Assembly: GCA_964632175.1 (NCBI GenBank)
Contig: CAZWBJ010000004.1
Span: 1-63,744, forward strand
DNA from: Candidatus Hadarchaeota archaeon
GTDB lineage: Archaea > Hadarchaeota > Hadarchaeia > Hadarchaeales > JAWBSP01
DNA length: 63,744 nt
Reading direction: 5' to 3'
How positions within the stretch are numbered: position 1 is the stretch's first letter; the number at the start of each line of letters is the position of its first letter. This document shows, one piece after another, positions 6,382 through 27,377 of this stretch. A program made the position numbers and the translations under genes. The notes under the pieces are model-generated. The model was not told the DNA's origin and did not search any database. It was given only the letters and a program-made list of their open reading frames with translations.

Positions 6382-7398
6382 TTACTCAAGGACGGAGAGG
6401 TAGGCCCGACCTTGGGGGGTTTCAAAATGCTGGCGCACTGGGGAAATCAACCTGTCAAGATAATCCACAAGGGCGAGCTTCAAATCGAGCGGATGGATCC
6501 TACCCTTCCGGAATTCCTCCTCGAGCTTGGGATACTGGTCAAAATGGAGCACCTCCCCCGATTTCAGCCTGACCTCAAACCCCCCAAAGGCCTCGAAGAC
6601 CAAGAACCTGATGTAGTCCATCACGGGGTTTATCGGGTCGCGCTCGGGGCAGTAGGCCTTCCTTATTTTTCTTTCGATCTCTTCCCTTGAGTCGTGCACG
6701 AAGATGCAGGTTTCAGGCTTGCTCTTACTCATCTTCTCCTCCGGCGTTTTCCCCGAAAGGCTCATGAGCATGTGGTGGTGAACCGCCACCGGCTTCCTCC
6801 TCCCGAGCTTGGGCGCCACCTCCCTGGCCAGCATGTTGGCCCTGCGCTGATCCATCCCAAGCTGGCAGATCTCCACCCCAAGGTAGAAAATGTCGGCCAC
6901 CTGCATGCTGGGGTAAAAAAGCCAGGCAGTGGGGTTCTCCAGGCTCTCCTCCCTCCCGGCGATGGTGAGGGCCCTCATCGCCCTCCTGACGTTGTGGTTC
7001 TTGGCCACCGAGAGGACGAGCTTCCAGTACTCGGGGTCGCGAACCAGATCGGAGGACCAGACGACCTCCACCTGATCCATGGGTACCCCCGCCGCCCTCC
7101 ACACCTCGATGAAGTACTCCCCCACCTTCCTTATGCGCTCGAAATCCCCACCCATCTTTTCGTTTATCCAGGCGAACCAGTCGGCCAGAAGGAGCTTGAA
7201 CCTGAGCCCAGCCTTCAGGAGCTTTTTCAGGGTGAGGGGGCGGTAGATTCCGAAGGGGAGGTGGGCCAGACCCGAGGGCTCGAAGCCGTCGTAGGCGAGA
7301 GGGTGCTCCTCCGTCTCCAGCAGGTCCCTGAGCTCCTCCTCGGTGACGATTTCTTCCGCGACCCCCTTTATCAGCTGAAGCCTAGTTTCAACGTCCAC
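6382..7398 (-). CDS. tyrS: tyrosyl-tRNA synthetase (archaeal type)
   Basis: 338 aa, colinear with M. jannaschii TyrRS as I recall it (EELR..L......AY.GFEPSG..HL, LLAD..A.LN.K, KMSKS). Confidence 0.93.
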   Translation of the reverse strand: MDVETRLQLIKGVAEEIVTEEELRDLLETEEHPLAYDGFEPSGLAHLPFGIYRPLTLKKLLKAGLRFKLLLADWFAWINEKMGGDFERIRKVGEYFIEVWRAAGVPMDQVEVVWSSDLVRDPEYWKLVLSVAKNHNVRRAMRALTIAGREESLENPTAWLFYPSMQVADIFYLGVEICQLGMDQRRANMLAREVAPKLGRRKPVAVHHHMLMSLSGKTPEEKMSKSKPETCIFVHDSREEIERKIRKAYCPERDPINPVMDYIRFLVFEAFGGFEVRLKSGEVLHFDQYPKLEEEFRKGRIHPLDLKLALVDYLDRLISPVRQHFETPQGRAYLSVLE

Positions 7399-7876
7399 CC
7401 TTCAGCCTCCACGCCAGTTCTGTCACCTTTTTCCCCAGTCCGAAGCACTCTCTCCTCGCCTGCTCATCCGGGGGGCCGTTGGCTGCCGCCCCGTAGTGGC
7501 CACCCGTGGAGAGGGGATCCCCGCAGACGACCATTCCGTGGATGAGCATGGACTGAAGGATGGAGAGCATGGTGGTCTCTCTCCCCCCCGCCCTGTGTCT
7601 GGAGGAGCAAAAGGCGGCGCCAACCTTCCCCTCCAGCTTGCCCCTGACCCTTATGGACTCGTCGAGGAAGCGCTTGACTTCCGCCGCCGGCCCGCCGAAG
7701 TAGGAGGGACTCCCGATGATGATTCCATCGGCCTCCACAAGCTCTTCCACCCTCGCTCGCGTGATCTCCTCCAAGACGACCTCGCCCCCCGCCTCCTTGA
7801 CCCCCGCCGCCACCTCTTCAGCCATGGCCTTGGTGTTGCCGCCGCGGGAGAAGTACAGAACGAGGATCTTTACCAT
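7388..7876 (-). CDS. flavodoxin-fold FMN protein (WrbA / NADPH-dependent FMN reductase-like)
   Basis: 162 aa. MVKILVLYFSRGGNTKAMAEEVA...GIIIGSPSYFGG is the flavodoxin-like FMN-binding pattern. It overlaps the tyrS start by 11 nt. Confidence 0.8.
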   Translation of the reverse strand: MVKILVLYFSRGGNTKAMAEEVAAGVKEAGGEVVLEEITRARVEELVEADGIIIGSPSYFGGPAAEVKRFLDESIRVRGKLEGKVGAAFCSSRHRAGGRETTMLSILQSMLIHGMVVCGDPLSTGGHYGAAANGPPDEQARRECFGLGKKVTELAWRLKGGR

Positions 7877-8035: not shown

Positions 8036-8845
8036 CTAGGCCGGCACTTGGATAGGAACAAGTTGGAGGGGCTGGGCCCACTTGATGACTTTCCGCGGGC
8101 AGACTTCCACGCACTTCCCGCAACCCGTGCACAGGACGGGGTCAATGGAGATCCTCTCACCAACGAACTTTATTGCCCCCGTCGGACAATTTTTCTCGCA
8201 GAGTCTGCACTTTATGCATCCCCTGGTGCAGGAGGCCACCACTACCTTTCCGGGCTCCGGGGAGTTGCAGTCTACAAGCACCTTCGAGTTTCTGGGGATC
8301 AGCCTAAGCACTCCCCTCGGACAAACCCGGACGCATATCCCGCACCCCCGGCATTTCTTCCAGTTGATTTCTGGCAGCCCCCCGACCATTTTTATCGCCC
8401 CGAAAGGACAGGCCCTCTCGCAGTCCCCCAAACCTAGGCAGGCGTACCTGCAGACCGTCGGCCCGCCCTGAAGGAGGGAGGCGGCGAGGCAGCTCCTCTC
8501 CCCCTGATACCTGAAACGGGGCTTGGATCCGCCAGCGCAGGCCCTGGCCGCTACCGCCCACTCCACTTGTGGGGAAAGATGCACCTTGAGGTAGGAGGCC
8601 ATCCTCGCTCTCTCCGGCGCGGTCAGGACCCGGCAGCGGTCGAGGAGTTCGGGGTTGGAGACGAGCGCCCGGGCGTAGTCCTCACATCCCTTGAACCCGC
8701 AGGCGCCGCAGTTTGAGCCGGGGAGCATCCCCCTCACCTCCTCCACCCTCTCGTCCACCTGAACCGCGAACCTGCGCGAGGCCCAAACCAGCAGGAGGGA
8801 AAAGCCGAAGCCCACCAGACCAAGGGAGAGGGATTCCCCTATCAT
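8036..8845 (-). CDS. rnfB: Rnf complex subunit B (polyferredoxin)
   Basis: N-terminal membrane anchor, then GSNCGACGFKGCEDYARALV, followed by several CxxCxxCxxxCP 4Fe-4S motifs. Confidence 0.88.
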   Translation of the reverse strand: MIGESLSLGLVGFGFSLLLVWASRRFAVQVDERVEEVRGMLPGSNCGACGFKGCEDYARALVSNPELLDRCRVLTAPERARMASYLKVHLSPQVEWAVAARACAGGSKPRFRYQGERSCLAASLLQGGPTVCRYACLGLGDCERACPFGAIKMVGGLPEINWKKCRGCGICVRVCPRGVLRLIPRNSKVLVDCNSPEPGKVVVASCTRGCIKCRLCEKNCPTGAIKFVGERISIDPVLCTGCGKCVEVCPRKVIKWAQPLQLVPIQVPA

Positions 8846-9417
8846 CCCCCTATCCCCGCGAACCCCTGGAAGGAAAGCGCCAGGAGCCCCGCCGCTATGA
8901 AGGCGATGGGCGCCCCCTGCAGAGAGCGGGGCAGCTCCTCGTAGGCCAGCCTCTCCCTGATCCCGGCTAGCAGGACGATGGCCAGGGTGTAACCGAGGCC
9001 GGTTGCCAGGCCGTTGACGAGGGAGGCCGGGAGCGAGTACCCTTCCTCGAAGTTTATCAGGTTGACGGCTAGGATGGCGCAGTTGACGGTGATGAGGGGG
9101 AGATAGATCCCGAAGGCCGAGTAGAAGCGGGGCATGGTCTTCCGCATGATGATTTCCACCAGCTGGACGAAGGAGGCGATGACCAGGATGAAGGCCACGA
9201 TGCGCATGTACTGGATGCCGAAGGGAGTGAGGAGGAAGTGGTTGATGAACCAGGTCACCGCCGAGGAGGAGACGGCCACGAAGGTCACGGCCATCCCCAT
9301 CATGGCCGAGTTCCTGAGGTTGGAGGAGATGCCGAAGTAGGAGCAGAGGCCGATGAACCTAGTGAGCACAATGTTGTTTATCAGCAGGGTCACCAGGAAA
9401 ATGGAAAGGAGGCCCAA
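8842..9417 (-). CDS. rnfA: Rnf complex subunit A
   Basis: 191-aa polytopic protein. The N-terminus LLINNIVLTRFIGLCSYFG and the NCAILAV motif are typical of RnfA/NqrE. 4-nt overlap with rnfB. Confidence 0.92.
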   Translation of the reverse strand: MGLLSIFLVTLLINNIVLTRFIGLCSYFGISSNLRNSAMMGMAVTFVAVSSSAVTWFINHFLLTPFGIQYMRIVAFILVIASFVQLVEIIMRKTMPRFYSAFGIYLPLITVNCAILAVNLINFEEGYSLPASLVNGLATGLGYTLAIVLLAGIRERLAYEELPRSLQGAPIAFIAAGLLALSFQGFAGIGG

Positions 9418-10023
9418 CTAGATCACCCCCAGCTTTTTCAGTAGGGCGAGCATCCCTCCCATCACCAGGAAACCGCCTGGGGAGAGGAGAAAGCCGGAGA
9501 CCGGCTGGGAGAGGAGAACCAGGGAGCGGCCGAAAAGGGAGAGCCCTCCCGAGCCTAGGAGTTCCCGGATGAAGGAGATGGAGACGATGGCCAGACCGAA
9601 GCCCGCCGTCATCCCGCACGCATCCGCCAGGCTTTCGAGCACGGAGCGCTTGGAGGAGAAGGCCTCCACCCTCCCCAGCACGATGCAGTTGACGGTAATG
9701 AGGGGGAGGAAGATCCCAAGGTGCTCGCGGAGGGTGGGGGAATAGGCCCTGATGATCAGCTCGGTGACGGTGACAAAGCTGGAGATCACCACCACGAAGA
9801 TGGGTATCCTGACGTTCTTGGGAATCCAGCGCCTGGAGAAGGAGGTGACGAGGCAGGAGCCCAGGAGGACGAACCCGAAGGCCAGGGTCATCCAGATGGC
9901 ATCCTCCACCGACTTGGAGATGGCCAGGAAGGGGCAGAGGCCCAGCAGGATGACGAAGACGGGGTTCTTGCGCAGGATCCCCTTTTCCGCCTCCCACCTC
10001 AGGTTCGGCCTCTCCTCAGCCAC
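9418..10023 (-). CDS. rnfE: Rnf complex subunit E
   Basis: 201 aa. NPVFVILLGLCPFLAIS and ITVNCIVLGR are typical of RnfE/NqrD. It abuts rnfA. Confidence 0.92.
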   Translation of the reverse strand: MAEERPNLRWEAEKGILRKNPVFVILLGLCPFLAISKSVEDAIWMTLAFGFVLLGSCLVTSFSRRWIPKNVRIPIFVVVISSFVTVTELIIRAYSPTLREHLGIFLPLITVNCIVLGRVEAFSSKRSVLESLADACGMTAGFGLAIVSISFIRELLGSGGLSLFGRSLVLLSQPVSGFLLSPGGFLVMGGMLALLKKLGVI

Positions 10024-10528
10024 GGGTAAGCGCCTCCCTCACTGCCTCCAGAATGGCCCGGGAGGTTATGGTGGCACCCGTCACTGCCTCCACCTTTCCC
10101 TGGGGCTTGAAGGCTAGATCCCCCCATCCCAGGTTCTCGAACTGGGAGAGGTAGGAGGGCTCGGTTGCCCTGGAGCCTATCCCCTTGGTTTCGCTGTGGG
10201 AGAGCACCCTTACCCCCCTCACCGTGTTGTCGGGATTTATCCCCACCAGCACCTTGATGGCTCCGCCGTAGCCCTTGGTCTCCACCTCCACCGCCCTCCC
10301 CACCAACTGGTTGTCGCGGAAACAGTAAAAGATGCCGTTCTCCTCCCGGAACTGGCACCCGGGGAAGATCTCCCCCACTTTCGCCTCCCTCTCCCTCCTC
10401 TCGGCCTCCTCTATCCTCGGCTCGGTCATCTTGTGCACGTAGCCGAGAATCAGCCCCCAAATCACGCAGGTGAGGGTGAGGGCGAGGACGGGCTTGAAGG
10501 CTTTCATCTCCCCTTTCCACGAACACAT
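10016..10528 (-). CDS. rnfG: Rnf complex subunit G (FMN-binding)
   Basis: N-terminal anchor, SETKGIGS, and the flavinylation-type motif VTGATITSRA. An alternative ATG at 10507 gives MKAFKPVLAL. Confidence 0.88.
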   Translation of the reverse strand: MCSWKGEMKAFKPVLALTLTCVIWGLILGYVHKMTEPRIEEAERREREAKVGEIFPGCQFREENGIFYCFRDNQLVGRAVEVETKGYGGAIKVLVGINPDNTVRGVRVLSHSETKGIGSRATEPSYLSQFENLGWGDLAFKPQGKVEAVTGATITSRAILEAVREALTRG

Positions 10529-10603
10529 TTTAGGCCCATGTTACAGCGACGTGGGCGATTGGGGGTTAGCAACCGCACTTCAGTACGGGAATCCTAGGTG
10601 ACA

Positions 10604-10625
10604 TGGCGTTACTATGGTAACGCCA
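10604..10625. repeat. palindromic motif copy (perfect 9+4+9 palindrome)
   Basis: TGGCGTTACTATGGTAACGCCA. Located in the apbE-rnfG intergenic region and flanked by AAAATTTT. Confidence 0.85.
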
Positions 10626-10687
10626 AAATTTTGAGGCTCCCGTTTTTTCGAGTCTTGATTATGCCCTGACTCTCACAGCAGCCGCCT

Positions 10688-12745
10688 TCATGGGGACAGT
10701 AACGCACCCCAGTTCTCGGTGGTGCGAATTTCTCCGGCAGAGGTCACGAAGAGCCCGTGGGCCCCCAGGTTTTCGAGGAGCTCTCCCCCGGCCGCGGGCC
10801 CTAGGACGAAGGTTGCCGTGCTCAGGGCATCCGCATCCACCCCCCTCCTCGCGACCACCGTCACGCTCTGGCACCCCGTGGCTGGCTCACCCGTTCGGGG
10901 GTCGATGATGTGGTGTATCCTCCGGCCGCCGAGGAAGTACACCCTCACGTAATCGCCCGAGGTCGAGACCGCCCCCTCCTTGAGCTCTATGGTCTGCAGG
11001 ATCTCCTCCGGCTTCCGCGGGTGCTGGATTCCGATCCGCCAGCTCTTGCCGAAGACCCTTATCTCCCCCCCTATCTGCACCATCCCCGCCTCAATCCCAG
11101 AAGACCTGAGGATCTCACAGGCCCGGTCGGCGGCGTACCCCTTGGCTATCCCACCCAGCGTCACCTGCATTCCCACCCTCTCGAACCTCGCCCTTCCATT
11201 CTCCAGCGCGAGCCACTTCCAGTTGACCAGCGCTCTCGCCTCCTCCAGCTCCCCCGCCGAGGGCAGCTTTCCCGTCTCCTTCACCTTTTCCATCCAAAGG
11301 TCCACCAGCGGCTTGACGGTGGGGTCAAAGGCCCCCCCGCTGAGCTCGGCGTAGCGGAGGGCTTCTTGGAGCACTTGGAGGGTTTCGGGAGAGAGGTCCA
11401 CCCAAGAGCTTGAGTGGTTGAGCCTCCAGATCTCCGTCCCCTCCTTTTCGCTTGAGAGGAGATCCTCCAGCCTGTGGATTTCCTGAAGGGCCCGCTCCAC
11501 CGCCTCCCCCGCCCGCCCGAGGTTCTCGTCGAGGGCGGTCACCCGAACCAACGTGTCCATGGCGAGGTCCTCTGCCTTCACGTACCCGGCCCCGTACTCG
11601 AAGCGGGGAAGGGAAAGGGCGGTGAGCAGCAGGGGGAGGAGGAAGAGGAGGCAGGCCAGACCGATCACCGTTCTCCGGCCTTCGCCCTTCACTCTGGGGA
11701 GAAGAAGGAGGAGGGAGGCGAGGAGGGACTGGGTGAGGAGGAAGCTGAGGGAGAGGCCGAGGAGCCCGAACCTGCGCCCGAGCAAGATTAAGGAGAGGAG
11801 CTGGAAGGGGACGGCCGCTGCGTAGGCCGAGGAGGCCCCAGCTGGCTTCTGCTCGGAAAGGAGCTCGGCGCTGCACACCTGGGAAACGGTCGCCGGGACG
11901 AGGGAGAGCAGGATGATTCTCAGGGCGGTTGTGGAACCCGAGTAGTCGGGGAAGAGCTGGGGGACTAGGAGGGAAAGGGGGAAGGAGGCGATCAGCAGGA
12001 GGAGGGAGGATCTAAGGGCCAGAGAGCGCACCCCCTTGGAGCCGGTGGAGAGGGAGTAGAAGAAGAGGGTCTGGGGGAGGGCGGCGAGGAGGTAGAAGAA
12101 CCTAGTGGAGAAGTGATACAACCCCAAGACCTCCATCCCCAGCAGCCTTCCCGCCACCGCTTTGTCCAGGAAACCGAGGGAGGCCGAGCCCAAGTCCGAG
12201 AGCAGGTAGCCCGCGATTTTGGGGCTGGGTTTTGGCGTTACCATAGTAACGGACAAACGCCGGAGGAGGAAGGGGACGGAGGGAAGGAAGTGGGAGAGGA
12301 AGAGGCCGAAGAAGATGAGCCAGGTCCTGCCTCCCCAGAGGTAGAGGAGGACGGGGAGGGGAAGGAGGGCGGAGCGGAAGAGCCAGAGGAGGAGGTACCC
12401 TCCGGGATCCTGCCGTGAGAGCTCGAGGTGGAAGGAAAGGGAGAAGAGAGAGAGGCCGAAGACGAGCAGGCCGGCCCAGGGGTTGAGGAGGGAAAGGGCA
12501 GCGCCAGCGACGGTGGAGGAGAGGAGGGTCAGGTAAAAGGAGAGCTGCGGGGAGGGGGACCTCGAGACCACCAGCGACTTCCCCAAGCCCAGGCAGGCAG
12601 CGGTTGAGACGAGCATGGAGAGGGAGTAGAGCCAGCCCACCTCCCCGAAGGCGAAGGGATGGAGGAGGAGGGCGAGGGTGAGCCAGAAGAGGGCGCCGGA
12701 AAGGGTGGCCAAGACCTGCGCCGCCGCCACCAGCTTTAGGTCCAT
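10688..12745 (-). CDS. apbE: fusion protein: polytopic MOP/polysaccharide-flippase-like membrane domain (about 390 aa, about 12-13 TM) plus C-terminal ApbE FAD:protein FMN transferase
   Basis: The C-terminal part carries ApbE signatures (AFDPTVKPLVDLW, TLGGIAKGYAADRA, SGDY, HHIIDPRTGEP, DADALSTA). The N-terminal part is L/S-rich and polytopic, with flippase-like segments (GRLLGMEVLGLYHFS; LLLHPFAFGEVGWLYSL). It is one uninterrupted ORF of 685 codons. Confidence 0.8.
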   Translation of the reverse strand: MDLKLVAAAQVLATLSGALFWLTLALLLHPFAFGEVGWLYSLSMLVSTAACLGLGKSLVVSRSPSPQLSFYLTLLSSTVAGAALSLLNPWAGLLVFGLSLFSLSFHLELSRQDPGGYLLLWLFRSALLPLPVLLYLWGGRTWLIFFGLFLSHFLPSVPFLLRRLSVTMVTPKPSPKIAGYLLSDLGSASLGFLDKAVAGRLLGMEVLGLYHFSTRFFYLLAALPQTLFFYSLSTGSKGVRSLALRSSLLLLIASFPLSLLVPQLFPDYSGSTTALRIILLSLVPATVSQVCSAELLSEQKPAGASSAYAAAVPFQLLSLILLGRRFGLLGLSLSFLLTQSLLASLLLLLPRVKGEGRRTVIGLACLLFLLPLLLTALSLPRFEYGAGYVKAEDLAMDTLVRVTALDENLGRAGEAVERALQEIHRLEDLLSSEKEGTEIWRLNHSSSWVDLSPETLQVLQEALRYAELSGGAFDPTVKPLVDLWMEKVKETGKLPSAGELEEARALVNWKWLALENGRARFERVGMQVTLGGIAKGYAADRACEILRSSGIEAGMVQIGGEIRVFGKSWRIGIQHPRKPEEILQTIELKEGAVSTSGDYVRVYFLGGRRIHHIIDPRTGEPATGCQSVTVVARRGVDADALSTATFVLGPAAGGELLENLGAHGLFVTSAGEIRTTENWGALLSP
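12233..12256. repeat. palindromic motif copy inside the coding sequence
   Basis: TGGCGTTACCATAGTAACGGACAA. On the minus strand it reads in frame as ..S V T M V T P K.. in ORF 10688..12745. Confidence 0.85.
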
Positions 12746-12773
12746 CGTTTATCGCCGGACTCGAAATTTTAGT

Positions 12774-12847
12774 GGGCCCGTAGTCTAGCCTGGATAGGAC
12801 ACAGGCCTGCGGAGCCTGGAACTCGGGTTCAAATCCCGACGGGCCCG
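12774..12847 (+). tRNA. tRNA-Arg (anticodon GCG)
   Basis: Hand-folded cloverleaf: acceptor GGGCCCG/CGGGCCC, D-arm with GG, anticodon stem CAGGC/GCCTG with loop CTGCGGA, T-arm TCGGG-TTCAAAT-CCCGA, discriminator G. CCA is not encoded. Confidence 0.9.
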
Positions 12848-13615
12848 CTAACCCGAGGTGTGCGTGACCTGAATGGTGGAATGGAATGGACCGGTGAGCA
12901 CTTCGATCCTCACCTGGTTCTCCCCCCTCCTCAGCAGAAGGAAAGCACTGAAGAGGTTCTCATCCTCTATCGCCCAGCCCTGGAGGGTCAGCGTCTGTCT
13001 GAACCAGTAGGCGAGGGTGGTGACGTTTCTCTCCGGGCTCCCGTAGGTGAGTTGGACCCGGTTTCCGGAGACGGAGTGGGAGAGCATGACTGAATCGGGA
13101 TATCTGGGGATGGGCTCCCACCCACTTGCCTGATCCGAAGAGGGAAGGAGCTCCCACGGGGCTAGGCTCGAGGGCTCTCCCCTGGCAAGAAGATAGAAGG
13201 AGCCGTTCTCGTTCCCAGCCGCCCCCACTCCGACCCCCTCGTTTTCTCTTGCGAAGATGAACCAGCCGAGCTCGAGGGACCCCGTTGGCAACCCGATGGT
13301 CATCAGCCCCTGCATGCCTACCAGGGCGTAGCCCCTGTTTTTAAGAATCCCCCGGTACCACTCAAGCACCTCCCCCGCGGCCTTTTTCACCCAGAAAGAA
13401 GAGAGGTTCTCCACCCCTCCAAAGGGAAACTGAGAAGGGAGAAAGGAGGGCAGGTTTTCCGGAACGGAGCCGGGGTAGATTGGGATTTCCTTCTCCTCCC
13501 CAACATTTTCCCCCGCCTCCTTCCGGGTCTCCCCAGCTGATTTCAGGTGTAAGGCGAGATAGCCCGCGCCGACCACGACTAGGGCGAGAACTGCTAGGGC
13601 TGGGGCTTTCCTCAT
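12848..13615 (-). CDS. signal-anchored extracytoplasmic protein with two internal repeats (hypothetical)
   Basis: 255 aa. N-terminus MRKAPALAVLALVVVGAGYLALHL. Two related modules: IPIYPGSV...VLEWYRGILKNRGYAL and IPRYPDSV...LAYWFRQTLTLQGWAI. It abuts the PrsW-like gene. Confidence 0.6.
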   Translation of the reverse strand: MRKAPALAVLALVVVGAGYLALHLKSAGETRKEAGENVGEEKEIPIYPGSVPENLPSFLPSQFPFGGVENLSSFWVKKAAGEVLEWYRGILKNRGYALVGMQGLMTIGLPTGSLELGWFIFARENEGVGVGAAGNENGSFYLLARGEPSSLAPWELLPSSDQASGWEPIPRYPDSVMLSHSVSGNRVQLTYGSPERNVTTLAYWFRQTLTLQGWAIEDENLFSAFLLLRRGENQVRIEVLTGPFHSTIQVTHTSG

Positions 13616-14191
13616 CTATTTTTCCCCGGCTAAGGTTTTGCCCTGCCTGGAGGATCGGGTGAGCAGGAAGGGGAAGACCAGCAGCCCCAGCATAAGCTCG
13701 CACAATCCCTGCACTTCCAGCCGAGAGGGAAAGGGACTCGCGGTGTTCCAGAGGGAATGCAGAAGGACCGCCGCCGAGTATGCTAGAACCCCCCAGCCTC
13801 TCCGCCTGCAGAAGAACCCCCAGTAGAGGCCAAGCCCGACGAGACCTGACCCGAGCGCATGGGAGAACAAGGCCAGGAACCTGAGCCCCCCGAACTCTCC
13901 GTATCCGAGGTTTTCCACCACGCCGAAGAGGAAGCCGCAGAGGTATCCAAGCGCGTACCAGCTCCCCCCCGCTTCCAGCCAAGGCATCTTCCTCACCCCG
14001 CGGCGGTAGGTGAGCGCCAGCATGAGGGGCCCGAGCACCTTCAGGAACTCCTCGACCAACGGGGCCTCCACACGCTGCCGGATGAGGGCGTCGTGGAAGA
14101 GGGAGTGGATTTCGGCCGCGAGAAGGGAGGCCGGTAGAACCGCCACCAAGACGGCGAGGAGAACGAGCAGGTTGAGAGCTTCTTCCTTCAC
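13616..14191 (-). CDS. PrsW-family intramembrane protease-like protein
   Basis: 191-aa polytopic protein with PrsW-type motifs EEFLK (EExxK), FGVVE (FxxxE), SHALGSG and HSLWN (HxxxN). The GTG start overlaps the upstream stop (GTGA). Confidence 0.7.
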   Translation of the reverse strand: MKEEALNLLVLLAVLVAVLPASLLAAEIHSLFHDALIRQRVEAPLVEEFLKVLGPLMLALTYRRGVRKMPWLEAGGSWYALGYLCGFLFGVVENLGYGEFGGLRFLALFSHALGSGLVGLGLYWGFFCRRRGWGVLAYSAAVLLHSLWNTASPFPSRLEVQGLCELMLGLLVFPFLLTRSSRQGKTLAGEK

Positions 14192-17457: not shown

Positions 17458-18783
17458 TCAGTCACCAAAGGTTTCCTTTACCCATCGCCTGAAAAGCTCC
17501 CTGTTCTGGGATGCCCTTTCGACAAAAACCTTATCGTGCCTCTTTATCCTCTCCCTTATTTCCTGTTCCCTCTCTTCCAGCCTTTCCATCTTCTCCACCA
17601 GCTGATCGTAGAGATTCGCTGGCATCTGCGGCGGGCTGACGGTGACGGGGATGTAGAAGTCCATGAGCTCGAGCTCCCTGAAGACCGCCTCAAGCCTGGA
17701 ATCCGAGGAAATGGCGATCATGGGGACACCCGCGGAGGAGGAGAGGACGGAGGCATGGTATCGGGTGGTGATGAGGAAGCGCGATTCCACCAGCAGGGAC
17801 TTGATGTCGTCCACGTTGTACTGGAAGGAAGGAATCCAGCGGGCCTCCTCCTTATGTTTCATGAGCTCCATAATCTCCTTGGCATTCTGACAGTCCCCCT
17901 CGAAGGCCGCCATCCCGATGAGGAGCACGTTGGTGTTGAATTTCTCCACCAAGTAATCGCAGAACCTGGCCATGTCACGCTTGAAGCGCTCGCTGAACTC
18001 CCTCCCCACCCGCCCCACCGCTAGCCAGTAATTGGGAAGGTAGACTTTGGAGCTTATGAGGGGGGCGTACCCGTACTCCCTCTTCCACATGGCCTCCAGC
18101 GTCTGGTATCCCTCTCTGGGGTAGAGCTTGGGCGTGATGGGAAGGAGGCCCCAGAACTCTTTGGGGGCGACGGCTATGGGAGGCTTCTTTATGTTCAGCT
18201 TTTCCAAGAGGGCCCGGCGGTATTCTTCCGGCGGAGTGGGGTAGAGGTAGGCACCGTCTGCCGTGACGTGTATCTCCTTGGTCACCCCGTACTCCATCAT
18301 CCGCTTCTTGGCATCCGGGTTGCGCACCATGATGAGGTCGATACACCGGTTCAGGGTCCGGGCGGAGGCGGGGGCGTTGTAGAACTTCATGGGGCTGCAG
18401 TCGTTGGAGTAGGAGACGGTGTGGCGCCCGCGCAGGTGCTGTAGCCTGGCGGCGAGGAGGAAGAGCCAGAGGAAGCCGTCGTGGTAGGTGTCTAGGAAGG
18501 TCGAGCCCTCGCAGAGCAGGACGATATCATAAACGTCCCCCCAGATCAAGCGATAGAGGGATTCCAGTCCCCCTTCGAAGATCGGGAAGAGGGAGATGAT
18601 CTCCACATCCGGGTCCTTCACGTACCTCCTCTCGTTTGAGGGACCCACCACCAGCACGTAGAGCTTGCCTAGCCGCTCGCCCAGAACTTCTTTCACGTCC
18701 CTGATGGTGACTAGGAGCTTCGCCTCCGAGCCCGTGTTGTCCACACCGTTCCACCCAAGCAGGAGAACGTTCAGCTTCCTCAT
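17458..18783 (-). CDS. polysaccharide pyruvyl transferase family protein
   Basis: An internal ATG at 18783 (ATGA overlap with the upstream ORF) gives MRKLNVLLLGWNGVDNTGSEAKLL. The C-terminal motif ITTRYHASVLSSSAGVPMIAISSDSR is typical of this family. Confidence 0.72.
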   Translation of the reverse strand: MRKLNVLLLGWNGVDNTGSEAKLLVTIRDVKEVLGERLGKLYVLVVGPSNERRYVKDPDVEIISLFPIFEGGLESLYRLIWGDVYDIVLLCEGSTFLDTYHDGFLWLFLLAARLQHLRGRHTVSYSNDCSPMKFYNAPASARTLNRCIDLIMVRNPDAKKRMMEYGVTKEIHVTADGAYLYPTPPEEYRRALLEKLNIKKPPIAVAPKEFWGLLPITPKLYPREGYQTLEAMWKREYGYAPLISSKVYLPNYWLAVGRVGREFSERFKRDMARFCDYLVEKFNTNVLLIGMAAFEGDCQNAKEIMELMKHKEEARWIPSFQYNVDDIKSLLVESRFLITTRYHASVLSSSAGVPMIAISSDSRLEAVFRELELMDFYIPVTVSPPQMPANLYDQLVEKMERLEEREQEIRERIKRHDKVFVERASQNRELFRRWVKETFGD

Positions 18784-19199
18784 TTTTTCGCCACCGCTAT
18801 GGCAAGGAATTCCCTGAGCAGCCTGCTCCCGCTCACGAGAAGGTTGGCTAGGTACTCCCTGCACTTTTCGTTCTGGAGGAGGTCGGTGAGGACGGGGGAG
18901 GCCATCCCAGCAACGGCCGGGAGAACATCCAGCCACTCGCACATCTCCCTGTTGATACCGCCTAGGATCCGGAGGCTCTCCCTCACCCTCGGGTCGGAGA
19001 GAAACTGCTGGATTGCTTGGGAGAATTCGGGATCGTTTAGGGCAGCAGCTCTAGGACAAGCAAGCAGGGTTTCCTTCAGGGTTTGGAGGAGCCTCGGTAG
19101 TGCCAGCTCTTCCAGCACGCCCGCCATTAACACTTGTGTGCGGGCTAAAAAGAAGCGGGCTTTGAGGAGTTTTGAGGCCCATGCGGTTGCACCGGTCAC
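18780..19199 (-). CDS. hypothetical helical protein
   Basis: 139-aa ORF, first gene of the three-gene minus-strand unit and translationally coupled to the next gene. Confidence 0.5.
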   Translation of the reverse strand: MTGATAWASKLLKARFFLARTQVLMAGVLEELALPRLLQTLKETLLACPRAAALNDPEFSQAIQQFLSDPRVRESLRILGGINREMCEWLDVLPAVAGMASPVLTDLLQNEKCREYLANLLVSGSRLLREFLAIAVAKK

Positions 19200-20352: not shown

Positions 20353-21261
20353 TCATTTCGTCCCATAAACTCTGGGCTTGGTGAATCTCTCGATGAGGGG
20401 CGAGAAGGCGTTCATGATGAGGATGGAGTAGGTGACCCCCTCCGGCAGGCTTCCGAACTTCCTGATCAACACCAGCAGGCACCCCGCCCCCACCCCGAAG
20501 ATGAGCCTACCCTTCTTGGTGATGGGTGTGGTCACATAGTCCGTCGCCATGAAAAAGGCCCCCAGCAGCAACCCCCCGGCTAGCAGGTGGAAGAGGACGG
20601 GCTCTCCCAGTAGCCAGGTCAGGAGGGCGACGGTTCCGAGATATGACGCAGGAATTCTCCAATCGATTAGCCTGAGGATCAGGAGGGCGGCACCCCCCAG
20701 AAGGAGGGCGAAAGCCGAGATCTCTCCGATGCATCCTGGCCTGAAGCCCCAAAACATGCTCGAGAGCGAGGAGGTGGCATGCTGGTGCTTCCAGAGGTTG
20801 AGGGGGGTAGCGGAGGAGGTGGCTTCCAGCGGGACGGGCCAAGTAGGCGGGGCTATCAGGGCGGGCCAAGAGAGCATGAGAAAAGCCCTGCCCACGAGCG
20901 CTGGATTGAAGAGGTTGTTGCCAGTTCCCCCGAAGGCAATTTTGCCCGCGAAGATGGCGAAGGCTGAGCCCACGGCGGGAACCCAGAGTGGAACCGAGGG
21001 TGGAAGGCAGAGGGCAAGGAGGAGGCCCGTCACCGCCGCCGAAGATCCCGGTTGCTTTTTCAGCATCCGGCAGCCCAGGCATTCGGAGAAAAGGGCGGAG
21101 GCGATGGAGATCAGAACCACCGCTAGGGTCCTCCAACCAAAAGCGTATACTCCCCAGCCTGTGGCGGGGAGGAGGGAGAGGATCACCGCCAGCATGATGA
21201 GGTTGGAGGTGGTTCGAGCCCTCACATGGGGCGGCGGGGATACGGTGAGATTCTGCATCAT
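20353..21261 (-). CDS. rnfD: Rnf complex subunit D
   Basis: An internal ATG at 21261 gives MMQNLTVSPPPHVRARTTS and makes an ATGA overlap with the rnfC stop. Polytopic, with the SSATPL flavinylation-type motif and MATDYVTTP. Confidence 0.9.
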   Translation of the reverse strand: MMQNLTVSPPPHVRARTTSNLIMLAVILSLLPATGWGVYAFGWRTLAVVLISIASALFSECLGCRMLKKQPGSSAAVTGLLLALCLPPSVPLWVPAVGSAFAIFAGKIAFGGTGNNLFNPALVGRAFLMLSWPALIAPPTWPVPLEATSSATPLNLWKHQHATSSLSSMFWGFRPGCIGEISAFALLLGGAALLILRLIDWRIPASYLGTVALLTWLLGEPVLFHLLAGGLLLGAFFMATDYVTTPITKKGRLIFGVGAGCLLVLIRKFGSLPEGVTYSILIMNAFSPLIERFTKPRVYGTK

Positions 21262-22532
21262 CGCTTGACCAGCGCCGAGGCCTTGAGCTTCCCCTCCCTC
21301 ATGAGGTGCACCAGCGGAATTCTGGAGGGGCAGATGTACGCGCAGCACCCGCACTCGTCGCAACTGAGGATGTTTCCCGACAGGCAGTCCTCATATCTCC
21401 CAGCCCTGACGAGCTTGGCCAGCAGAGTGGGCATGAGCCCCATCGGGCAAACCTCGAGGCAGCGGCCGCACCTTATGCAGGGGCTCTCCGGCTCCTCTTT
21501 CACCTCCCCCATCACCAGCACATTTCCTGTCGTCTTGGCAACGGGGGCGTCTCCCGAGAGGGCCACCCCCATCATGGGCCCGCCGGCTATGAGTTTTGCG
21601 GGCCCCTTGGTCGCCCCGCCGCACTGCTGGAGCAAGTCCGAAAAAAGCGTTCCCACCCTCACCATGAGGTTCTTGGGCTGAGCGACATCGCCGGTGACGG
21701 TTACCACCCTTTCAACTAGGGTCCTCCCCTTGAGGGCATCCGAGATGGCCTTGAGCGTGGCGACATTCTGCACCACCACGCCCACGTCGAAGGGAAGTCC
21801 GCCAGCCGGCACCTCCACCCCCAGCACGGATCTTATGAGATGCCTTTCGTCCCCCCTCGGGTATCTGGTCTTCAGTAGCTTTACTTCGGCGAATCCTCTC
21901 ATGACTTCTCCCATTTTCTCGGCCGCGTCGGGTTTGTTATCCTCGACTGCTACAATCACCCTCCGGACTCCGAGAATTCTGGCTGCAATCTTGGTTCCCT
22001 CGGCTATCTCTTGGGGGAATTCCAGCATGAGTCTGTGGTCAGAGGTGATGTAGGGTTCGCACTCCACCCCGTTGACCAAAAGAGTGTGAACGGGTTTGGG
22101 CGGGTTCAGTTTGACGTGGGTTGGGAAGCCCGCCCCCCCCATCCCCACCACTCCCGCCTCCCTTATCCTCTCCAAAAGTGCCTCCTTGGGCGCGTCGGGG
22201 CTGAGGGGGGGAAGTTCTACTCGCTCGTCCTTTCCGTCCGAGGTGATGGTGATGCAGGTGATGAACTCTCCTGACGGGGAAAGCTCGCTTGAGATTCCGC
22301 TCACGGTTCCCGAGATAGAGGCATGCACCGGGGCCGAAACCTTGGCGGGGGAATCGCCGATCTTCTGTCCGGTCTTGACCACATCGCCCACCTTGACCAA
22401 CGGCTCACAGGGTGCCCCTACGTGCTGGCGGAGTGGAATGACCACCTTTTCTGGGAGTCTAGCCTTCTCGATGGGTTTGGAGGCTGTGAGCTTGCGCTCC
22501 TTGGGGTGAACTCCTCCTCTGAATCTGGGCAT
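21258..22532 (-). CDS. rnfC: Rnf complex subunit C (NADH/FMN-binding and 2x[4Fe-4S] type)
   Basis: The probable start at ATG 22532 gives MPRFRGGVHPKERK. Also present are GMGGAGFPTHVK and C-terminal CIRCGRCLEVCP / CDECGCCAYICP. The ORF-track start at 22646 (TTG) adds an atypical 38-aa extension. Confidence 0.9.
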   Translation of the reverse strand: MPRFRGGVHPKERKLTASKPIEKARLPEKVVIPLRQHVGAPCEPLVKVGDVVKTGQKIGDSPAKVSAPVHASISGTVSGISSELSPSGEFITCITITSDGKDERVELPPLSPDAPKEALLERIREAGVVGMGGAGFPTHVKLNPPKPVHTLLVNGVECEPYITSDHRLMLEFPQEIAEGTKIAARILGVRRVIVAVEDNKPDAAEKMGEVMRGFAEVKLLKTRYPRGDERHLIRSVLGVEVPAGGLPFDVGVVVQNVATLKAISDALKGRTLVERVVTVTGDVAQPKNLMVRVGTLFSDLLQQCGGATKGPAKLIAGGPMMGVALSGDAPVAKTTGNVLVMGEVKEEPESPCIRCGRCLEVCPMGLMPTLLAKLVRAGRYEDCLSGNILSCDECGCCAYICPSRIPLVHLMREGKLKASALVKR

Positions 22533-23123
22533 TGAGAATCTCTGCGCGGGAGTTAAATCAGGAACGCGAGGGCTCTTTACTTCGAGAGCCTTACCTTTTA
22601 GGGAGAGCTTTCTCTGACCACCCAAGTAGCCTCGCGATGGATTCAATTCCGAGTTCCTTCAGGGCTGAGCTTACCGGTTTTCCACAGCACCCAGTTCTTT
22701 TCGAGAATGATGCGCTCGCCCGGAGGCAGGGGCCATCCCCTTTTAACGCCCTCCCTGATGAGTTTGCCGTACTCTTGGAGTTCACGAATTTCCTCCGCGG
22801 AGAGCCCGGCACCCGGCCCTTTTTCTGCGGGGGTGAAACACTCTTTTTTCCACTAACGCCCGAGCTGTGGTTTAAAGAGGAAGCACGCTGTGAGAAACGA
22901 ACCGCTACCAGAGAAAGAAATTCTGGCTGAAAGCACTCTTCCTCTTGGCAGGTTCCTCAACCATCCTTGGTACCTGAGAAATGCAGGTCGCTTCCTTTGG
23001 TGATGTTTTGCTTGTTTGGTGCCTGAGGACTGGGCACGTGACTATTCGTACTCGGAACGGGAGTAGGCTTATAGCAAGGGAGGGATAGTTTTCAGCGCGA
23101 TGAGGTGAAGGCTAGGCTGAAAC

Positions 23124-24526
23124 TCATGATGAAGATTTTGAGTGCCGAGCGCCACCCTCTCCCTTCAGGTATTTGCGGATGAACTCAGGCCTGACTTTTT
23201 TGAGTTCGCTTTCGGGTAGCAGGTGCAGGAGCTCCCAGCCCAGATCGAGTGTGGTTTCGAGCGAGCGATTCTCGTACATCCCCTGGTTCACAAACTCCCT
23301 CTCGAACCGTTCAGCAAATTCTAGGTATCTCCGGTCTCTATCCGTCAGGGCTTCTTGCCCCACCACCGCCACCAGCGCTCTGAGATCCCTCCCCTCGGCA
23401 TAGGCAGCATAAAGCTGGTTGGAGAGCTCCATGTGATCCTCTCTGGTCTTGCCCGGTCCTATTCCATCCTTCATGAGTCTGGAGAGAGAGGGGAGGACGT
23501 TCAGGGGCGGGTAGATCCCCTTGTGATGGAGTTCCCGATCTAGGATCAACTGCCCCTCACAGATGTACCCCGACAAATCCGGAACGGGATGGGTGATGTC
23601 GTCTCCGGGCATGGTGAGGATGGGCATCTGGGTGATGGATCCTTTTTTCCCCCGAACTCTCCCCGCCCTCTCGTAGATGGTGGCAAGATCGGTGTACAGG
23701 TATCCAGGGTATCCCCTCCTCCCCGGAACCTCGCTCCTAGCGGCCGAGATCTCCCTCAGGCTTTCAGCATAATTGGTCATGTTGGTGAGGATAACAAGGA
23801 CGTGCATCCCCTGCTTGAAGGCCAGGTACTCCGCGGCGGTGAGGGCGAGCCTTGGAGTGAGGATGCGCTCGATGGCGGGGTCGTTGGCAAGATTGAGGAA
23901 GAGCACCGCCCTTTCCAGCGCGCCCGTTCTCTCGAACTCGGATCTGAAGAAGGAGGCCTCGGCGTAGGTGATTCCCATCCCCGCAAAGACCACCGCGAAC
24001 TCCTCTCCTCTCCCAGGTATGGTGGCCTGCCTGGCGATCTGGGCTGCAAGCTCATTGTGGGGGAGACCGGACCCGGAGAAGATGGGGAGCTTCTGTCCCC
24101 TCACGAGCGTGTTCATGCCGTCGATGGCCGAAATACCAGTCTGGATGAATTCGCTTGGGTATTCCCTAGACGCGGGGTTCAGGGGGGCGCCGTACACGTC
24201 CCTCCTCTCCTCGGGGAGGGGCTTGGGTCCGCCGTCAATGGGATCCCCCCTCCCGTTGAAGATTCTCCCAAGCAGCTCCATCCCCACCCCGAACTTCACC
24301 GTTTCGCCCGTGAATCTGATCTTGGTTCCCTTCGTGTCGAGGCCGGAGGTCCCCTCGTATACCTGGACCACCGCCCTACCCTCGTGAGAGTCAAGCACAT
24401 GCCCCCTCCTTCTCTCGCCATCGGGTCCCGTGACCTCAACCACTTCCCCGTATGCGGCGTCCTTCACCCCTTCAACTACGAGCAGGGGCCCGGCGATGCT
24501 TGAGATGGTCAGGTACTCCCTCGCCC

Positions 24527-24530
<4 letters not shown>
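23124..24530 (-). CDS. atpB: A1AO (A/V-type) ATP synthase subunit B
   Basis: 468 aa. [17 protein letters not shown], and it is colinear with archaeal B subunits. Confidence 0.96.
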
Positions 24531-26263
<1,733 letters not shown>

Positions 26264-26321
26264 CGCTCCCTTTCCGGCGAGTTTATTTAGTCGATTAGCT
26301 TTCCCCTTTCCCTCCGGGTGG

Positions 26322-27377
26322 ATGATGGTGGAAACCCTCGTGTTGAAAGTGGATCCCCAGCTCCCCGACGCCAGAAAGATTTGTTTGGCTGCGGAAGTTC
26401 TGCGTGCCGGTGGCTTGGTGGCCTTCCCCACTGAAACGGTTTATGGCCTCGGGGCAAACGCTTTGGACGAGAGGGCCGTTCTGAGGATATTTGAGGCCAA
26501 GAAGAGGCCGGCAGACAACCCGCTTATCGTTCACATAGCTGATCTGGAGGATGTTCACCTTCTTGCGGAGCATCTGCCCCCCAGGTCTGAGGAGCTGATG
26601 GAGAGATTCTGGCCGGGTCCCCTCACTCTCCTTCTGCCCCGCTCGGAGCTCGTGCCCGATGTCACCACCGCTGGTCTCGACACGGTTGCAGTGCGGATGC
26701 CGAGCCATCCCGTGGCTAGGATGCTTATAAAGGAGGCGGATGTGCCCGTTGCCGCACCGAGCGCCAACCTCTCGGGAAGACCGAGCCCCACCACCGCGGC
26801 ACATGTGCTTGAGGACCTCTCGGGGAGGGTGGAGGTGGTGATTGATGGGGGCGAGGTGGAGTTTGGTCTGGAGTCCACCATCCTGAGCCTCACCACCACT
26901 CCCCCAACCCTCCTGAGACCCGGACCCATCACGGTGGAGGAACTGCAGGAAATCTTGGGGGAGGTCAGAGTTCACCCCGCCGCGAGGGCTGAGTCCACGG
27001 AAGTGGCACTGGCACTAGCCCCGGGGATGAAGTACAGGCACTATGCTCCTAAGGCTAAAGTGGTGGTGGTCGAGGGGCCGGTGCAAGCTGTGAGAGCCAA
27101 GATCCGGGAGTTGGCGCAAAGGTACAGAGAGATGGGTAAGAAGGTGGGAATCATGGCAACCGCCGAGAACGCCTCCGAGTATGAAGGGCTTGTGGAAGTG
27201 GTGGGAGAGCGCCAGCGACCCAAGACGGTGGCGAAAAATCTGTTCAAGGTTCTAAGAAAGTTTGACGAGGAAGGTGTGGATGTGGTGATAGCCGAGGGGC
27301 TGGAGCCCGTCGGTGTGGGGCTCGCCATCATGAACAGATTGAGGAAAGCAGCAGGCCAGGAGGCAATCCGCGTTTAG
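26322..27377 (+). CDS. sua5: threonylcarbamoyl-AMP synthase (Sua5/YrdC plus Sua5 C-terminal domain)
   Basis: The internal ATG at 26322 is taken as the start. Motifs: [43 protein letters not shown]. Confidence 0.9.

Follow-up and report, generated by a model that had tools for sequence, protein, structure and literature searches.

We analyzed a stretch of DNA from Candidatus Hadarchaeota archaeon (63,744 nt of contig CAZWBJ010000004.1; hereafter, the window), the gene content of which is archaeal (aEF2, aRF1, A-type ATPase, and archaeal AdoMet synthetase). The gene under study is located on the (−) strand upstream of rnfG and encodes a 685-amino acid (aa) protein composed of a transporter-like membrane domain with 12 transmembrane (TM) helices, a thirteenth helix (TM13), and a C-terminal ApbE domain, i.e., a transferase that attaches flavin mononucleotide (FMN) from flavin adenine dinucleotide (FAD) to proteins. 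Our analysis securely establishes a fusion that is conserved and under selection: an active-looking ApbE, predicted to lie outside, shares one chain with a MOP-fold domain, and its gene is linked to those of its Rnf substrates (Table 1).

The fusion gene forms a single frame of 685 codons that begins with ATG and is unbroken, as an earlier sequence-only reading of this DNA had stated. A search with the full-length protein revealed 32 homologues that align with it from end to end (683 to 785 aa in length and 37% to 91% identical to the window protein), and these come from separate contigs and from sources independent of one another (ENA, JGI, NCBI, and Logan). The named carriers are Hadarchaeales, Dehalococcoidia, other Chloroflexi, Acetothermia, and Atribacteraceae, with the closest named homologues found in Candidatus Hadarchaeales; the fusion is thus not unique to this assembly but occurs in archaea and in several bacterial phyla. 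It is rare, with full-length fusions accounting for 3 of the 80 best ApbE-domain matches listed for GTDB species representatives (two from Hadarchaeota and one from Dehalococcoidia) and for only a handful of clusters at 50% identity. In databases, the proteins of this family and the MFS-ApbE fusions described below carry no labels other than “FAD:protein FMN transferase,” “thiamine biosynthesis lipoprotein,” or “MFS transporter.”

The continuous frame, the GC content, which is the same in the two halves (both overall and at third codon positions), and the identical architecture of the 32 homologues rule out an assembly artifact, a frameshift, or two separate genes. A translation restart at Met396 was also rejected, since this residue belongs to the conserved MGT/MDT motif of ApbE. 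The sequence-only reading had offered an accidental fusion or a separate, reinitiated gene as its alternative, and neither survives these observations. Next, we compared the ratio of nonsynonymous to synonymous substitution rates (dN/dS) along the gene, using a single orthologue that is 91% identical (L095). The values were 0.20 for TM1 to TM12, 0.19 for the TM13 linker, and 0.17 for ApbE, indicating that the membrane half is held by purifying selection as strong as that acting on the enzyme.

Table 1. Coordinates of the fusion gene, its parts, and associated features (positions refer to the window unless another locus is named)
Feature	Position	Strand	Basis or remark
PST/MOP-like transporter–TM13–ApbE fusion gene, 685 aa	10688..12745	(−)	Single open reading frame; 32 full-length homologues
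12-TM MOP-fold (Wzx/PST-like) domain, residues 1–350	11696..12745	(−)	AlphaFold2, Foldseek, homologue Pfam/NCBIfam matches
Residues 351–395: positive cytoplasmic loop (PRVKGEGRR), TM13 (360–378), short beta-hairpin into ApbE	11561..11695	(−)	AlphaFold2, topology
ApbE FAD:protein FMN transferase domain, residues 396–685	10688..11560	(−)	PF02424; Foldseek 1vrm; phmmer 1vrm
Arg215, TM8 outer half	12101..12103	(−)	Present in all fused proteins; 97% of stand-alone relatives have Gln
His612, equivalent of catalytic His257 of V. cholerae ApbE	10910..10912	(−)	Alignment to 6nxi and H257G mutant 6nxj
rnfG (FMN_bind domain), presumed ApbE substrate	10016..10528	(−)	Pfam/NCBIfam
RnfG acceptor motif TGATITS	10061–10081
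rnfE	9418–10023	(−)	Pfam/NCBIfam
rnfA	8842–9417	(−)	Pfam/NCBIfam
rnfB	8036–8845	(−)	Pfam/NCBIfam
rnfD (PF03116, 368 bits)	20353–21363	(−)	Sequence scan
RnfD acceptor motif SSATPL	20800–20817
rnfC	21258–22646	(−)	Sequence scan
Spacer between fusion gene and rnfG	10529–10687
Stem in spacer	~10600–10640
A-type ATPase A and B subunit genes	23124–26431
Flavodoxin-like (FMN_red/Flavodoxin_5) gene	7388–7876	(−)
Flavodoxin-like gene, Hadarchaeales locus L001	17703–18191
Polysaccharide pyruvyl transferase gene	17458–18942	(−)
Polysaccharide pyruvyl transferase gene, L001	1289–2620
AAAATTT box	12765–12771
tRNA-Arg(GCG)	12774–12848	(+)
Two genes upstream of tRNA	12848–14191	(−)
Same two genes, L095	1501–2850
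MFS-ApbE fusion gene, L093	8001–10145
MFS-ApbE fusion gene, L094	8001–10163

The C-terminal half is a complete ApbE domain, as had been read from its motifs (GGIAKGYAADRA and HHIIDPRTGEP, both present). Specifically, Pfam matched residues 396 to 660 to ApbE (PF02424) with an E-value of 2.9e-85 and a score of 286 bits (cutoff, 25.6), covering profile positions 1 to 258 of 266, and NCBIfam likewise assigned this half to ApbE. Foldseek placed it on the structure 1vrm (E = 5e-19; TMt, 0.90; root mean square deviation, 2.0 Å), to which phmmer against PDB sequences also led (E = 7e-52). Residues H611, H612, D639, and T643 (the latter two in DADALST) as well as the GGIAKGYA motif are invariant in the 32 sequences, with H612 aligning with the catalytic histidine of the Vibrio cholerae enzyme. 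By its residues and fold, the ApbE half appears catalytically intact.

AlphaFold2 helices and hydropathy revealed 12 TM helices within residues 1 to 350 followed by a thirteenth, VIGLACLLFLLPLLLTALS, in agreement with the approximately 12 plus one helices counted earlier. The loop between helices 6 and 7 and that between helices 12 and 13 are strongly positive. When the N-terminus is placed inside in the 13-TM model, the mean number of Lys plus Arg residues is 17.9 for the cytoplasmic loops versus 1.9 for the outer loops, and this positive-inside bias was present in all 32 of the 32 homologues. Because of the 13 helices and the strength of this bias, the ApbE domain is predicted to be extracytoplasmic, with the N-terminus of the transporter in the cytoplasm, rather than to face the cytoplasm.

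The transporter domain consists of two six-helix lobes joined by a Lys/Arg-rich cytoplasmic loop (residues 162 to 176). Its AlphaFold2 model (pLDDT, 85; pTM, 0.86) yielded 46 significant PDB matches in Foldseek, all of which were MOP-superfamily transporters, with WzxE ranking first (9g9p; TMq, 0.69), followed by MurJ and then MATE; the full-length model gave the same MOP ranking behind the ApbE structures. Among 16 orthologous N-terminal domains, 11 matched Polysacc_synt (PF01943; best E-value, 5.5e-12), 10 matched Polysacc_synt_3 (PF13440), and 5 matched the NCBIfam entry “MOP flippase family protein,” whereas MatE (PF01554) was matched by neither the window protein nor any of the 16 homologues. 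The window domain fell below all Pfam and NCBIfam thresholds (the N-terminal 387 aa alone have no Pfam match, even at E ≤ 10), and its profile had no match among PDB sequences at E ≤ 10. The MOP/flippase hallmarks proposed from the sequence are thus supported through the homologues and the predicted fold but not by a Pfam match of the window sequence itself. Based on the stand-alone relatives (see below), the Pfam matches of the homologues, the predicted fold, and the lack of any MatE match, the membrane half probably descends from a compact Wzx/PST-type flippase family and not from MATE. A diverged RnfD was also considered as its origin and rejected, since the window encodes a normal RnfD elsewhere and the N-terminal domain has no match to PF03116. 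Of the three conditions that the sequence-only reading had set for its own refutation (ApbE in the cytoplasm, an N-terminal domain unlike transporters, and a fusion confined to this assembly), none was borne out.

We then examined the genetic link with rnf. The fusion gene lies directly upstream of rnfGEAB on the same strand, as had been noted, with 159 nt between it and rnfG. The flavinylation-type motifs reported for RnfG and RnfD are both in place, although rnfC and rnfD are not adjacent: they lie about 8 to 10 kb from rnfGEAB and the fusion, and rnf is therefore split in the window genome. In our context statistics, which cover nine fused loci, rnf genes were found within 10 kb at six of nine, being adjacent at five (the window, L002, L004, L012, and L013) and 6 kb away at L001, compared with 10 loci among the 77 that carry the stand-alone ApbEs of highest similarity. 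The apbE gene of an Rnf cluster is also called rnfF. A position of apbE beside rnf is in itself a known arrangement (PMC5736913).

Several other features of the region were observed. The rnfCD genes lie directly downstream of the genes for the A and B subunits of the A-type ATPase, and rnfCDGEAB is intact in the Hadarchaeota loci L002 and L013. A flavodoxin-like gene directly follows rnfB, with a counterpart beside rnfG in L001, and its product possibly serves Rnf as a low-potential redox partner. The spacer upstream of rnfG folds better than shuffled sequences (z = −2.85) and contains a perfect 8-bp stem, GGCGUUAC-CAUA-GUAACGCC, preceded by AAAAUUUU, for which a terminator, a processing site, and the rnfG promoter region are possible interpretations. 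On the other side of the fusion gene, a divergent tRNA-Arg(GCG) gene is located 28 nt from the ATG, and an AAAATTT box lies 20 to 26 nt upstream of the ATG, which could be an archaeal TATA box serving a leaderless mRNA. The two genes upstream of the tRNA, syntenic with the fusion in the closest orthologous contig (L095), encode a 255-aa protein with an N-terminal hydrophobic segment (by eye, a membrane anchor) and no Pfam match, and a PrsW-family intramembrane protease.

Fusions of a transporter to ApbE are not confined to this family. We found 43 clusters of ~720-aa proteins in Pseudodesulfovibrio and Desulfovibrionaceae (P0034 and P0193 to P0233) in which an MFS_1 transporter is followed by a loop of positive charge, one more helix, and then ApbE. 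Their genes are present in complete genomes of cultured species (e.g., Pseudodesulfovibrio methanolicus CP146609 and Pseudodesulfovibrio mercurii), and the proteins go under “MFS transporter” or “ApbE family lipoprotein” in databases, with no other annotation. At neither of the two loci examined was rnf found beside the gene. MFS and MOP are unrelated superfamilies, and this fusion is independent of PST-ApbE. A further protein of 574 aa (P0033) combines ApbE with PepSY_TM, a type of membrane protein class that Meheust et al. reportedly linked to flavinylation-dependent electron transfer in 2021.

The FMN that ApbE attaches comes from FAD, in a Mg2+-dependent reaction; the acceptor is a Thr, that of TGAT in RnfG and that of SSAT in RnfD. 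Transferases of this type specifically require FAD. From structural knowledge of Rnf and Nqr, the FMN sites of RnfG and RnfD are on the extracytoplasmic side. Rnf, Nqr, NosR, reductive dehalogenase subunits, and many extracellular electron-transfer proteins all mature through this chemistry. To our knowledge, the supply of FAD to this side has been solved only for the energy-coupling factor (ECF) system of Firmicutes and, in part, for Bfe of Shewanella. Substrates of ApbE are encoded in about half of the sequenced bacterial genomes (PMC9973259), and the route by which FAD reaches extracytoplasmic ApbE has been called “still obscure” (PMC12052999) and “an open issue” (PMC5655446). Two MATE proteins of the MOP superfamily, Bfe and YeeO, export FAD (PMC3551548, PMC5655446), and it has been suggested that ApbE of Vibrio obtains its FAD through Bfe (PMC5655446); in Firmicutes, the genes of the ECF FAD exporter colocalize with apbE and rnf (PMC9973259).

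The fusion may solve the FAD supply problem within one polypeptide. The 12-TM domain of the Wzx/PST branch would begin in the cytoplasm, and TM13 would take the chain back out, leaving an ApbE with intact catalytic residues exposed at the external side of the membrane, i.e., the same side as the acceptor sites of RnfG and RnfD. If the transporter half is a working, neofunctionalized flippase-type carrier, which is the uncertain step, it would move cytoplasmic FAD across the membrane, probably by cation-coupled transport as in other MOP transporters, and release it next to the active site of the tethered enzyme. Such FAD export is plausible, and we propose it tentatively, as the likeliest of the readings considered but one that falls somewhat short of probable. 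Its support is indirect and derives from the purifying selection on the membrane half, the clade-specific residues described below, the enrichment of rnf near the fusion, and the independent MFS-ApbE fusion.

To place the membrane half among its relatives, we ran an exhaustive profile search with the N-terminal domain over 1.84 billion representatives, which identified 253 proteins below the cutoff of E = 1e-30. The fusions ranked at the top (450 to 554 bits), followed by three proteins at 344 to 419 bits that are stand-alone or possibly truncated (P0037, P0038, and P0040) and, at 254 bits or less, a large stand-alone family of ~380 aa, the members of which end at profile position ~370 without helix 13 or ApbE. 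Four stand-alone PST-like proteins (P0088, P0106, and P0192, ~910 to 922 aa; P0102, 629 aa) carry C-terminal extensions of ~250 to 530 aa with no Pfam match, and the compact flippase scaffold seems to have been fused repeatedly to extracytoplasmic domains.

A comparison of the two groups revealed that the fused clade has invariant residues of its own on TM1, TM2, TM5, and TM8. Position 215 is Arg in 100% of the fused proteins; Q10 and W38 take the place of Asn and Tyr, respectively, in the stand-alone relatives; and H29 and W121 occur in the fused clade only. The D194-K195 pair on TM7, Y210, and Y230, which are family-wide, are retained, and ~30 residues of the membrane half are invariant across domains of life. 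Most of the clade-specific and retained key residues map to TM1, TM2, TM7, and TM8, which, by analogy with MOP structures, probably line the central cavity. The replacement of near-invariant residues suggests that the fused clade has changed in specificity, and the gained Arg and Trp residues would fit a ligand with a pyrophosphate and aromatic rings, which is suggestive but not proof.

These relatives also raise the alternative that the membrane half still flips a lipid-linked glycan or another envelope precursor, in which case the fusion would merely colocalize two activities or couple glycan export with Rnf maturation. The closest families (Polysacc_synt, Polysacc_synt_3, and “MOP flippase”) and the best structural match, WzxE, point this way, as do the gene neighborhoods of two of the four stand-alone relatives examined for context: the gene for P0050 is part of a cluster that also encodes glycosyltransferases, an epimerase, and an exosortase, and P0045 has sugar-nucleotide dehydrogenase-type genes as neighbors (P0182, in comparison, is surrounded by archaeal housekeeping genes). 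In addition, a polysaccharide pyruvyl transferase (PS_pyruv_trans) gene is located ~5 kb from the fusion gene and is syntenic in L001. However, this was the sole glycan-related gene found near the fusion, and none of the fused loci examined had a glycosyltransferase cluster beside the fusion gene, where rnf or unrelated genes are found instead. The fused clade has, moreover, replaced near-invariant residues of the stand-alone proteins (Gln by R215 and Tyr by W38), and glycan flipping cannot explain why MFS was independently fused to ApbE. We consider retained glycan flipping improbable.

Alternatively, the 12-TM domain may transport nothing and serve only as an anchor or scaffold that holds ApbE at the membrane, perhaps docking it onto Rnf or an insertase in organisms without the bacterial lipoprotein route. 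For characterized ApbEs, a lipid or signal anchor is sufficient (PMC12052999), rnf adjacency is common, other polytopic partners such as PepSY_TM are fused to ApbE as well, and the window copy has diverged so far that no Pfam transporter model recognizes it. On the other hand, a single helix would suffice as an anchor, and the 12-TM part is under purifying selection equal to that on ApbE, with the invariant buried polar or charged residues D194, K195, R215, and Q10 retained, as is typical of a substrate path. Furthermore, other archaeal ApbE matches (loci of Methanosarcinales and Altiarchaeota) stand alone, with at most a short N-terminal stretch. On balance, a purely structural role seems unlikely.

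MOP transporters are antiporters, which leaves room for other flavin-related transport. The domain might exchange FAD (outward) for adenosine monophosphate (AMP; inward), thereby removing a product that inhibits ApbE, or it might carry riboflavin or FMN and feed a pyrophosphatase-type ApbE, given that some ApbEs hydrolyze FAD (PMC12052999, PMC4767422). We rate these variants as very unlikely. They are not separated from plain FAD export by the sequence data, and the transferases require FAD.

Several of our results weigh against FAD export by the transporter half, in addition to the sugar-linked relatives and the pyruvyl transferase gene mentioned above. All outcomes that bear on FAD as the substrate are indirect. 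The Foldseek scores of Wzx, MurJ, and MATE are near one another. The domain belongs to the Wzx/PST branch, whereas Bfe and YeeO belong to the MATE branch, and hhalign detected no similarity between its profile and the single YeeO sequence of Escherichia coli (probability, 0.2%; nonsignificant); the comparison with the single E. coli WzxE sequence was also nonsignificant, and both are hence uninformative. At three of the nine fused loci (L003, L005, and the truncated L014), rnf was absent within 10 kb. A split form of the system was not found either: none of the 77 stand-alone ApbE loci had a PST-like gene nearby, no apbE was found beside P0050, P0045, P0182, or P0038, and no pair of a PST-like gene and a separate apbE was found beside P0038 or P0182. 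Finally, the full-length model, on which the geometry between the domains would depend, reached a pTM of only 0.65.

The two unrelated fusions allow a broader version of the export proposal, in which secondary transporters from different families (a Wzx-type MOP flippase here and MFS in Pseudodesulfovibrio) have convergently come to hand FAD to a tethered ApbE; we regard this “export-and-attach” principle as possible but doubtful. If true, it would identify the missing FAD route to ApbE, show that the Wzx/PST glycan-flippase scaffold has been repurposed for a dinucleotide cofactor, and explain how the Rnf complex matures in these archaea. The conserved transporter-ApbE fusion points to a specific candidate for this route, and the cultured Pseudodesulfovibrio species carrying MFS-ApbE could serve as an experimental system, while Hadarchaeales are uncultured. 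The components and the position of apbE by rnf are known (PMC5736913); new relative to the literature searched are the 13-TM PST-ApbE fusion, the MFS-ApbE fusion, and their implication for FAD supply. No description of a flippase-ApbE or MFS-ApbE fusion was found in that literature, which included the surveys PMC8238504, PMC11334425, and PMC12052999.

Compared with known systems, the enzyme half shares its catalytic domain with characterized ApbE/Ftp proteins, i.e., Thermotoga maritima TM1553 (1VRM; 36% identical; TM-score, 0.90), V. cholerae ApbE (6NXI), and Listeria FmnB (7ESA). It has the same catalytic His, D..T metal motif, and rnf link and is, by prediction, extracytoplasmic, but the known enzymes are ~300 to 350 aa in length with a lipobox, a signal peptide, or a single anchor, whereas the fusion has 395 additional N-terminal residues with 13 helices. 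A parallel in part order and size is MFS_1-ApbE (P0034, P0207, and P0222), which likewise comprises a 12-TM secondary transporter, a positive loop, an extra helix, and ApbE; it differs in its unrelated transporter superfamily, its bacterial and cultured hosts, and the location of the two examined loci away from rnf. The membrane half has the 12-TM two-lobe MOP fold of E. coli WzxE (9G9P), and homologues of the fusion match PF01943 and PF13440, but its core is more compact (~350 aa) than that of Wzx/PST proteins, has R215, W38, W121, H29, and Q10, is attached to ApbE, and is encoded at examined loci without an adjoining glycosyltransferase cluster. The FAD/FMN exporters Bfe of Shewanella and YeeO of E. 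coli belong to the same superfamily and carry the substrate hypothesized for the fusion, yet they are MATE rather than PST proteins and are separate from ApbE. The ECF-type FAD exporter EetB-FmnA of Listeria and other Firmicutes is a dedicated exporter that supplies an ApbE-like enzyme (PMC9973259), but it is ATP driven and multisubunit, has an unrelated fold, and is not fused to ApbE. In the trypanosomatid fumarate reductase, ApbE is also one domain of a larger fusion protein (PMC12052999); there, however, the enzyme is intracellular and joined to its own target, whereas the ApbE described here is joined to a transporter and predicted to act outside the cell membrane.

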